Of a stretch of 64,000 nt of DNA, positions 17,720-18,030 are shown piece by piece. Within the stretch, counting starts at the first letter, position 1. The number at the start of each line of letters is the position of its first letter. The notes under the pieces were generated by a model. The model was given only the letters and a program-made list of their open reading frames with translations. It made no database searches and was not told the DNA's origin. The DNA comes from Escherichia phage 215Ecol030PP. The position numbers and the translations under genes are program-made. The DNA lies in sequence record PP328843.1. One strand, given 5' to 3'.

Positions 17720-17829
17720 TATATTCTCTCATTTATTGCAGCAAAAATGAATTATATAATTCTTCATCATATGTATTTGATAGTAATACTAACACGTTTT
17801 GCGATAAATATTAATTTAAAGGAGGACAT

Positions 17830-18030
17830 ATGGTACAAAAATTAATGGCACTTGTTGATGCCATAAAAGGTAATAAGAAACGTATAGCTTTTACTATTTC
17901 TGCTATGATAGGAATTTTACTCTGGAACTTTATTTTATCACCTGTTGCAATTGCACATGGTATTAATATTCCAATAGTTACTCTTGATACATTCGTAGAT
18001 TTAGCATTTGCTTTAGTTGGGTTAATTTAA
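17830..18030 (+). CDS. plus-strand small membrane protein (two predicted TM helices), 66 aa
   Basis: Only plus-strand ORF outside minus-strand coding sequence; strong SD AAAGGAGGA at 17818-17826 then ATG at 17830; hydrophobic segments. Confidence 0.4.
   Translation: MVQKLMALVDAIKGNKKRIAFTISAMIGILLWNFILSPVAIAHGINIPIVTLDTFVDLAFALVGLI

Follow-up and report, generated by a model that had tools for sequence, protein, structure and literature searches.

A Small Plus-Strand Gene Between dam and Gene 61 of T4-Like Phages, Conserved With a Late-Promoter-Like Motif and Encoding a Predicted Inner-Membrane Protein

Introduction

What does an isolated open reading frame (ORF) of 66 codons, preceded by its own strong Shine-Dalgarno (SD) sequence and lying on the strand opposite to that of its neighbours, do in the genome of a T4-like phage? 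The question is raised by the interval between dam and gene 61 in a Tequatrovirus, a phage of the T4-like type, of which a stretch of 64,000 nucleotides (hereafter the window) was analysed. In fact, the gene is already known, since it belongs to a PHROG family and is annotated in hundreds of genomes: most relatives list it as a "hypothetical protein," RB14 and RB51 name it RB32ORF030w, and its RB69 counterpart, RB69ORF029w, was published as a novel ORF in 2006 (Nolan 2006, PMC1524935).

T4 is among the best-annotated viruses, yet its reference omits a gene whose location is conserved in six genera. In T4 RefSeq NC_000866.4 the 309-nt gap between dam and gene 61 (17626-17934; L004 2127-2435) carries no feature; its sequence nonetheless contains the intact 66-codon ORF, the SD and the motif GATAAATA, and the newer T4 assemblies OZ209023.1 and OL964745.1 annotate the gene. 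A full-text literature search retrieved no paper on this ORF and no strand-specific RNA, 5'-end, ribosome-profiling or proteomic evidence for it, and the locus is not mentioned in a T4 omics paper. A reference entry would allow the quantification of the gene in transcriptomic and proteomic studies and would provide a defined target for knockout. Besides the omission in the T4 reference, we describe a module with a late-promoter motif at a fixed position in six genera, the reach of the family to unrelated phages, and the role of the small ORF as the stable flank of a hyperplastic slot for dam or homing endonucleases.

The Locus in the Window

The window is dominated by the minus strand, with 61 ORFs of at least 120 aa on this strand versus 6 on the other, in agreement with the first-pass annotation, made from the sequence alone, which had placed almost every gene there. 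Around the small ORF, the minus-strand genes are a segF-like homing endonuclease, gene 56, dam (DNA adenine methyltransferase; 16940..17719; phrog_56), gene 61 (DNA primase; 18027..19055; phrog_47, E 2e-106), 61.1, 61.2 and sp (19861..20154), the last about 2 kb from the small ORF. As to the six plus-strand ORFs, of 127-142 aa and located at 5239-7855, 32526-32942 and 34938-35321, they have minus-strand surroundings and are probably antisense artefacts.

The gap that separates dam from gene 61 measures 307 nt. In it, the small ORF occupies positions 17830..18030 on the plus strand, starts with ATG and consists of 66 codons plus TAA, encoding the product MVQKLMALVDAIKGNKKRIAFTISAMIGILLWNFILSPVAIAHGINIPIVTLDTFVDLAFALVGLI. 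Upstream, on the same strand, are the SD sequence AAAGGAGGA (17818-17826), whose GGAGG ends 4 nt 5' of the ATG, and the late-promoter-like GATAAATA (17803-17810), 19 nt before the ATG; the coordinates given in the first-pass annotation for the ORF, its ATG and its SD were all confirmed, and so was the presence of a late-promoter-like motif just upstream. The ORF stop codon (TAA, 18028-18030) falls within the TTAA at 18027-18030, in which it overlaps the stop codon of gene 61. Convergent transcription with both neighbours had also been proposed: the small ORF is indeed convergent with gene 61, but it is divergent from dam. A search with the family HMM revealed no second copy in the window.

Evidence for Protein Coding

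The length of an ORF alone says little here, because spurious plus-strand ORFs of 60-100 codons abound antisense to real genes. Codon usage is more informative: a score trained on 53 long minus-strand genes of the window assigns 0.30 bits per codon to the small ORF, compared with 0.35 +/- 0.09 for the real genes of the window, and none of the 69 control plus-strand ORFs of 55-110 aa reaches this value (-0.17 +/- 0.14, maximum 0.18).

The substitution pattern also fits protein coding. A set of 20 distinct Tequatrovirus sequences differs at 32 sites, of which 11, 3 and 18 fall on codon positions 1, 2 and 3, respectively; all of the amino-acid changes are conservative, and dN/dS is 0.18. This within-genus value is not decisive by itself, because one antisense frame, in which the wobble positions coincide with those of the ORF and which is in register with the gene 61 stop, has a lowered dN/dS as well (0.28); it is the comparison across genera that decides. 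In comparisons between genera, the synonymous sites have reached saturation (pS 0.63-0.85), with a pN of 0.27-0.58, and the only frame open in all of the orthologues (7/7) is the plus frame of the small ORF. The antisense frame, open in Tequatrovirus and in RB69, contains 1-4 stops in Gapriver-, Kanagawa-, Jiaoda- and Dhakavirus.

Disruption in close relatives is rare. A 1-nt deletion in an A-run interrupts the copy of T4_ev240, and four frameshift variants (P0026-P0029) are found in the protein database, against hundreds of intact copies. The small ORF is a genuine gene under purifying selection, syntenic across genera, and the suggestion of a real plus-strand gene with its own SD was borne out; both the gene and the selection acting on it are observed in silico.

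On the opposite strand, the frame of gene 61 is open for 65 codons past its TAA in the window (17832-18026) and in RB69, which could in principle extend gp61 by read-through. This candidate was discarded, as the frame is interrupted by stops in the four other genera and coincides with the wobble-sharing antisense frame; it is probably a by-product.

A Constant Element at the 3' End of Gene 61

Residues 2-66 of the product match PHROG 2024 ("unknown function") over profile positions 1-65 of 65, with an E value of 2.8e-30. By megablast, DNA of the locus was found in 503 phage records at 90-99% identity, the carriers being about 500 Tequatrovirus genomes, and in a profile search the family comprises 117 protein clusters. 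Extension of the family across genera, by tblastn and profile search, identified orthologues of 63-69 codons that adjoin the 3' end of gene 61 on the plus strand in Tequatro-, Mosig-, Gapriver-, Kanagawa-, Jiaoda- and Dhakavirus. Amino-acid identity to the window copy is 54% in the Mosigvirus RB69 (RB69ORF029w), 49% in the Gapriverviruses SP18 and TH54 (unannotated), 33% in the Kanagawavirus Q7622, 25% in the Jiaodavirus KP1079 (annotated as "putative holin") and 20% in the Dhakavirus VR5. The convergent position abutting gene 61 was seen in T4, T2, RB14, RB69, SP18/TH54, Q7622, KP1079 and VR5, and in 12 more Tequatrovirus loci. In an alignment of 27 sequences, W32, N33, P38 and G44 are invariant, and A40, P48 and G64 nearly so. 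The named members RB69ORF029w (NP_861719) and RB32ORF030w (RB14 YP_002854367) have the same length, strand and place at the 3' end of gene 61 and no structural difference from the window copy, which is thus another member of PHROG 2024.

The orthologues keep their position with or without dam. Three 5' architectures can be distinguished: gene 56 directly upstream, without dam (RB14, W143, VIPECOOM01, PhiZZ6 and others); dam alone (T4 and the window); and dam together with a minus-strand ORF of 181-186 aa (T2, ASO78A, Lutter and G28). In many relatives, homology to the window sets in precisely with the SD (query position 100). What stays constant is the small ORF together with its promoter-like motif, and dam is a variable insert.

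The slot between gene 56 and the promoter (17720-17830 in the window) is hyperplastic in other genera too, hosting a homing endonuclease in VR5 (mobE) and in KP1079 and a 75-aa ORF in Q7622. In SP18 (L016 1709-1804) and TH54 (L010 2633-2728), a 31-aa remnant of a second copy, of the Dhakavirus type, lies beside gene 61, with a full copy of the Tequatro/Mosig type upstream of it; neither copy is annotated in SP18. This double copy looks like the result of allele replacement by recombination.

A Late-Promoter-Like Motif Conserved With the Gene

The reference late-promoter element is TATAAATA, located at -13 to -6 of T4 late promoters, in which position -13 is poorly conserved among T4-like phages (Nolan 2006, PMC1524935). 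The motif of the window, GATAAATA, is identical to it at 7 of 8 positions, the difference falling on the base at -13, which is G in the window copy and A, C or T in the other genera. The combination ATAAATA-N(8-24)-GGAGG has a single match in the 64 kb, at the small ORF.

The heptamer itself is scarce. ATAAATA occurs 7 times on the two strands of the 64 kb, versus 41.7 +/- 6.4 expected, i.e., it is about six-fold depleted, and TATAAATA is present in 3 copies versus 11.7 expected; the depletion of ATAAATA suggests a genome-wide avoidance of spurious late promoters. The seven copies are at 2777 and 17804 on the plus strand and at 15694, 16253, 45949, 47206 and 60280 on the minus strand. The one at 15694 is located at the 3' boundary of the segF-like ORF (15697..16386), on the side that soc occupies in T4. 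The only other plus-strand copy (2777-2783) lies in a gene 39/60-mobA-like region, with no evident SD-bearing ORF downstream.

Conservation points in the same direction. In all of the Tequatrovirus copies examined (23/23), G/AATAAATA is found 19-23 nt before the ATG and GGAGG 4-7 nt before it, and all of the cross-genus orthologues have a GGAG-type SD. Furthermore, NATAAATA is located 12-33 nt before the ATG in every orthologue, in upstream DNA that is otherwise unalignable between genera: RB14, RB69 and VR5 have the AATAAATA form, SP18 and KP1079 the CATAAATA form (KP1079 also with GATAAATA further upstream), and Q7622 a perfect TATAAATA. The conservation of the ORF, its SD and NATAAATA thus extends from the 23 Tequatrovirus copies to five further genera; for the ORF and its SD, the first-pass annotation had proposed this comparison as a check. 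In seven orthologous loci of 2.6-5.1 kb, the only plus-strand copies of ATAAATA are those 5' of the small ORF; with a background of 4.5e-4 per position in those loci, each has a probability of about 1% of carrying a chance copy within 30 nt of the start. The recurrence of the motif in independent contexts is not due to chance. The record of phage Lutter has an 8-bp plus-strand promoter annotated at the same place.

No sigma-70-type promoter was found on the plus strand upstream of the ORF. With canonical late genes of T4 the small ORF shares a motif whose spacing from the ATG is as expected, a strong SD after it, the plus strand as the usual direction of late transcription, and the maintenance across genera of a motif whose heptamer is otherwise avoided in the genome; it differs from them in that its motif starts with G rather than T and in its isolation within a block of early and middle genes. 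From the conservation of motif and SD, itself seen in silico, we infer that the small ORF is probably transcribed late, in a gp55-type manner. Three observations count against this model: the motif agrees with the late-promoter element at only 7 of 8 positions, with G at -13, the predicted leader is very short, and the late-promoter HMM of Nolan 2006 called no promoter for RB69ORF029w (PMC1524935).

The features described would make up a compact module of approximately 230 bp, consisting of a late-type promoter, a strong SD and 66 codons. On the late-promoter reading, the gp55/gp33/gp45-dependent machinery would start transcription at about 17816 (predicted 17816-17818), leaving a leader of approximately 12-14 nt, SD included.

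On the minus strand, ATAAATA is also found just 5' of 61.1-61 in Gapriver-, Kanagawa-, Jiaoda- and Dhakavirus (L016 3052, L010 3976, L017 2918, L018 2925 and L019 2871), which suggests a late promoter for the primase in these genera; in the window there is none near 19222.

Overlap With the Transcript of Gene 61

A terminator-like hairpin, ATGGCATCAACAAGTGCCAT followed by TAATTTTTGT, is present on the minus strand at 17835..17864, 165 nt past the stop of gene 61 and inside codons 2-12 of the small ORF. The gene 61 transcript probably ends there, and ASO78A annotates the same hairpin as a rho-independent terminator. The hairpin occurs in Tequatrovirus, where RB14 has a longer stem, and was not detected in the other genera.

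The presence of this hairpin within the ORF, and the lack of annotation of the latter in T4 RefSeq, could be explained if the region were non-coding and owed its conservation to the 3' UTR or terminator of gene 61, or if the ORF were a chance product of AT-rich DNA. We regard this as extremely improbable: the hairpin is found in Tequatrovirus only, while the frame is open in six genera at 20-54% amino-acid identity, with a dN/dS of 0.18, gene-like codon usage and the match to PHROG 2024 at E 2.8e-30. Conservation due to the terminator of gene 61 was rejected also as a separate candidate, given the restriction of the hairpin to Tequatrovirus and the unremarkable structure of the minus-strand tail of gene 61, in which no unusual folding was found (z = -0.9). 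No Rfam family matched at the locus.

The late transcript of the small ORF would converge with the primase gene and be antisense to its 165-nt 3' tail and terminator; in fact, the predicted mRNA of the small ORF is fully complementary to both. On the plus strand of the window, the 400 nt that follow the ORF contained no terminator, and two relatives yielded nothing better than weak 5-bp candidates. The main role of the locus might then be exerted at the RNA level, with late antisense transcription from 17803 shutting down the 3' end of gene 61 and the read-through toward dam, and with the peptide being secondary. The overlapping stops, the location of the entire ORF in the 3' tail and terminator of gene 61, the lack of a plus-strand terminator within 400 nt in the window and the convergent arrangement kept in all of the genera are consistent with this proposal, which we nevertheless judge very unlikely as an account of the main role. 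RNA pairing alone is insufficient to explain invariant W, N, P and G residues across genera in which synonymous sites are saturated; moreover, the ORF does not overlap gene 61 in KP1079 and SP18, and the minus-strand tail, as noted, is not unusually structured. An RNA-level role is compatible with a coding role, so that an additional antisense effect on the primase mRNA late in infection is possible; if the late-promoter reading is true, the late transcript could also silence the primase mRNA by convergent antisense transcription.

A Predicted Single-Helix Protein of the Inner Membrane

Two transmembrane helices had been predicted for the product in the first-pass annotation. One of them is clear: in every family member hydropathy reveals one strong transmembrane segment (approximately residues 19-41), and the Kyte-Doolittle profile (19-residue window) peaks at 2.0 at residues 23-41. 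The second is not secure, as the hydrophobic stretch 50-66 forms only a short helix of 12 residues in the AlphaFold model, with Asp53 and Asp57 on one face. In agreement with this, one transmembrane segment, at 21-41, has been reported for RB69ORF029w (Nolan 2006, PMC1524935, additional file 2). AlphaFold2, run with the 27-sequence alignment, returned a model with pLDDT 77.6 and helices at 2-12 (amphipathic), 16-42 (transmembrane) and 52-63, in which a conserved HG-x3-P loop separates predicted helices.

Family members carry 4-6 Lys/Arg on the N side of the helix and 0-1 on the C side, and the C-terminal flank of 25 residues has no Lys/Arg and a net charge of -2 and is hydrophobic; by the positive-inside rule, this distribution therefore predicts an N-in/C-out topology. 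The product would insert in the inner membrane via one transmembrane helix (approximately 19-41), with the basic N-terminal amphipathic helix staying in the cytoplasm and a W-N-x4-P-x-A-x3-G-x3-P-x4-D/E motif, together with a short hydrophobic acidic helix, facing the periplasm. Conservation is concentrated in the outer half of the transmembrane helix and the predicted periplasmic tail; the predicted cytoplasmic N-terminus is variable except for its basic cluster.

Taken as a whole, it is likely that the locus is a bona fide gene, driven by a late promoter (gp55/gp33/gp45), for a single-helix inner-membrane protein of N-in/C-out topology.

Distant Members and Possible Functions at the Envelope

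Searches for similarity give little indication of function. For 27 members, no informative similarity to a known family or defence model was found in Pfam, NCBIfam or PADLOC, PDB sequence profiles gave no match, and Foldseek against BFVD returned family members only, one of them auto-labelled "Holin." Our best guess, which we only infer, is a late-acting envelope role, for example in lysis timing or as a holin accessory; from the sequence, we would commit ourselves to no more than a late, small inner-membrane protein presumably acting at the envelope.

The gene context of distant members offers a weak hint of a role that is lysis-related or exerted at the envelope after the tail genes. When 1.84 billion representative proteins were searched exhaustively with a profile, only 17 family clusters were retrieved, some of them outside T4-like phages. 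Seven IMG/VR contigs encode a version of 91-97 aa (PHROG 2024, E 4e-10), downstream of a tail-fibre gene, an Rz-like protein with transmembrane (TM) and coiled-coil segments, a GH24 lysozyme, a homing endonuclease and proteins of about 188 and 103 aa. The members in L033 and L037 match PHROG 2024 with E values of 4e-10 and 6e-11, respectively, and that in L038 was found at E 4.2e-07 in the profile search of representative proteins. In DCP80, an unannotated member of 57 aa lies beside homologues of both partner proteins and an endolysin, and in two prophage-like contigs the member follows tail-tip/fibre genes and is accompanied by the same two partners, with a lysozyme in one of the contigs. 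The partners are proteins of approximately 180-196 aa, with a weak match to phrog_1924 ("minor tail protein," E 7e-8), and of approximately 100-106 aa, for which Pfam scans were uninformative; scans of IMG/VR with P0125 and P0126 found nothing. The family member and its two partners look like a conserved three-gene module.

These remote loci bear on a possible role in lysis, in which the protein would be a holin-, pinholin- or antiholin-like oligomerising membrane protein that adjusts, together with the T holin, when the envelope is disrupted. The protein is small (66 aa), embedded in the membrane by at least one predicted transmembrane domain, like holins, and predicted to be late; the members in L033, DCP80 and L038 have a GH24 lysozyme and an Rz-like TM/coiled-coil protein up to approximately 1.5 kb away and are the only other small membrane proteins on the coding strands there; and two database records label a member "holin." At the remote lysozyme loci, in other words, no plausible small membrane protein other than the family member and the TM/coiled-coil protein was found close to the lysozyme, which is itself 1-1.5 kb away from the member with other genes in between. 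Against a role in lysis, the linkage to the lysozyme is broken by three other genes; the "holin" labels look automatic; none of the 27 members matches a Pfam or NCBIfam holin family or a PHROG lysis family; and in T4-like genomes the gene lies away from e, t, rI and the spanin genes. The small holins and pinholins, such as lambda S and phage 21 S68, are comparable in size (60-100 aa), membrane-embedded and expressed late, as predicted here, but they have no sequence or profile similarity to the small protein, and holins have a highly charged hydrophilic C-terminal tail, whereas the small protein carries its charges at the N-terminus and ends in a hydrophobic stretch. T4-like phages already rely on the T holin, and T4 t mutants fail to lyse; therefore, the small protein cannot be a sufficient holin. 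In our judgement, a holin-like role is unlikely.

A different envelope role, namely a block of superinfection late in infection or the function of membrane partner for proteins associated with the tail or baseplate, appears distinctly unlikely. It would accord with the remote module, in which the larger of the two partners matches phrog_1924 at E 7e-8 and which is located directly after tail-tip/fibre genes at prophage ends, and with the predicted periplasmic exposure of the conserved residues. Exclusion "morons" often sit at prophage ends after tail genes. It is at odds with the lack of both partners in T4-like phages, a tblastn search having found them in DCP80 only, and with the lack of similarity to any exclusion protein; in addition, the T4 exclusion genes imm and sp are early and on the minus strand. 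Imm and Sp, like the small protein, are small, envelope-located and encoded in the same genome arm, but no sequence similarity was found and their topology and motifs differ. As for type I toxins, only Ldr_toxin appeared, below threshold (E 0.1) and for 1 of the 27 members; such toxins have a dedicated antisense sRNA, whereas here the overlapping antisense is the tail of the gene 61 mRNA.

Returning to the late inner-membrane protein that we favour, it is doubtful that it represents a missing part of a T4 envelope process, be it lysis timing or inhibition, late superinfection exclusion or the attachment of assembling particles to the membrane. If it acts late at the envelope, it could fill a gap in the pathways of lysis, lysis inhibition or exclusion; as such a missing part, it would define a new functional family common to T-even and unrelated temperate phages, where it is associated with lysozyme, spanin-like and tail-end genes; if it does not, it would be one more conserved hypothetical membrane protein of phages.

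Gene order varies among the remote modules, which span L033 1524-2402, L037 4210-5082, L038 2980-3887 and L036 3423-4287. The last of these is from DCP80 (PQ671644.1), where the member itself, at 3241-3414, has its own GGAGG SD, with an endonuclease VII gene on one side and a hypothetical gene on the other; although labelled Gaprivervirus, the record has a length of 141 kb and a local gene content that seems not to be T4-like.
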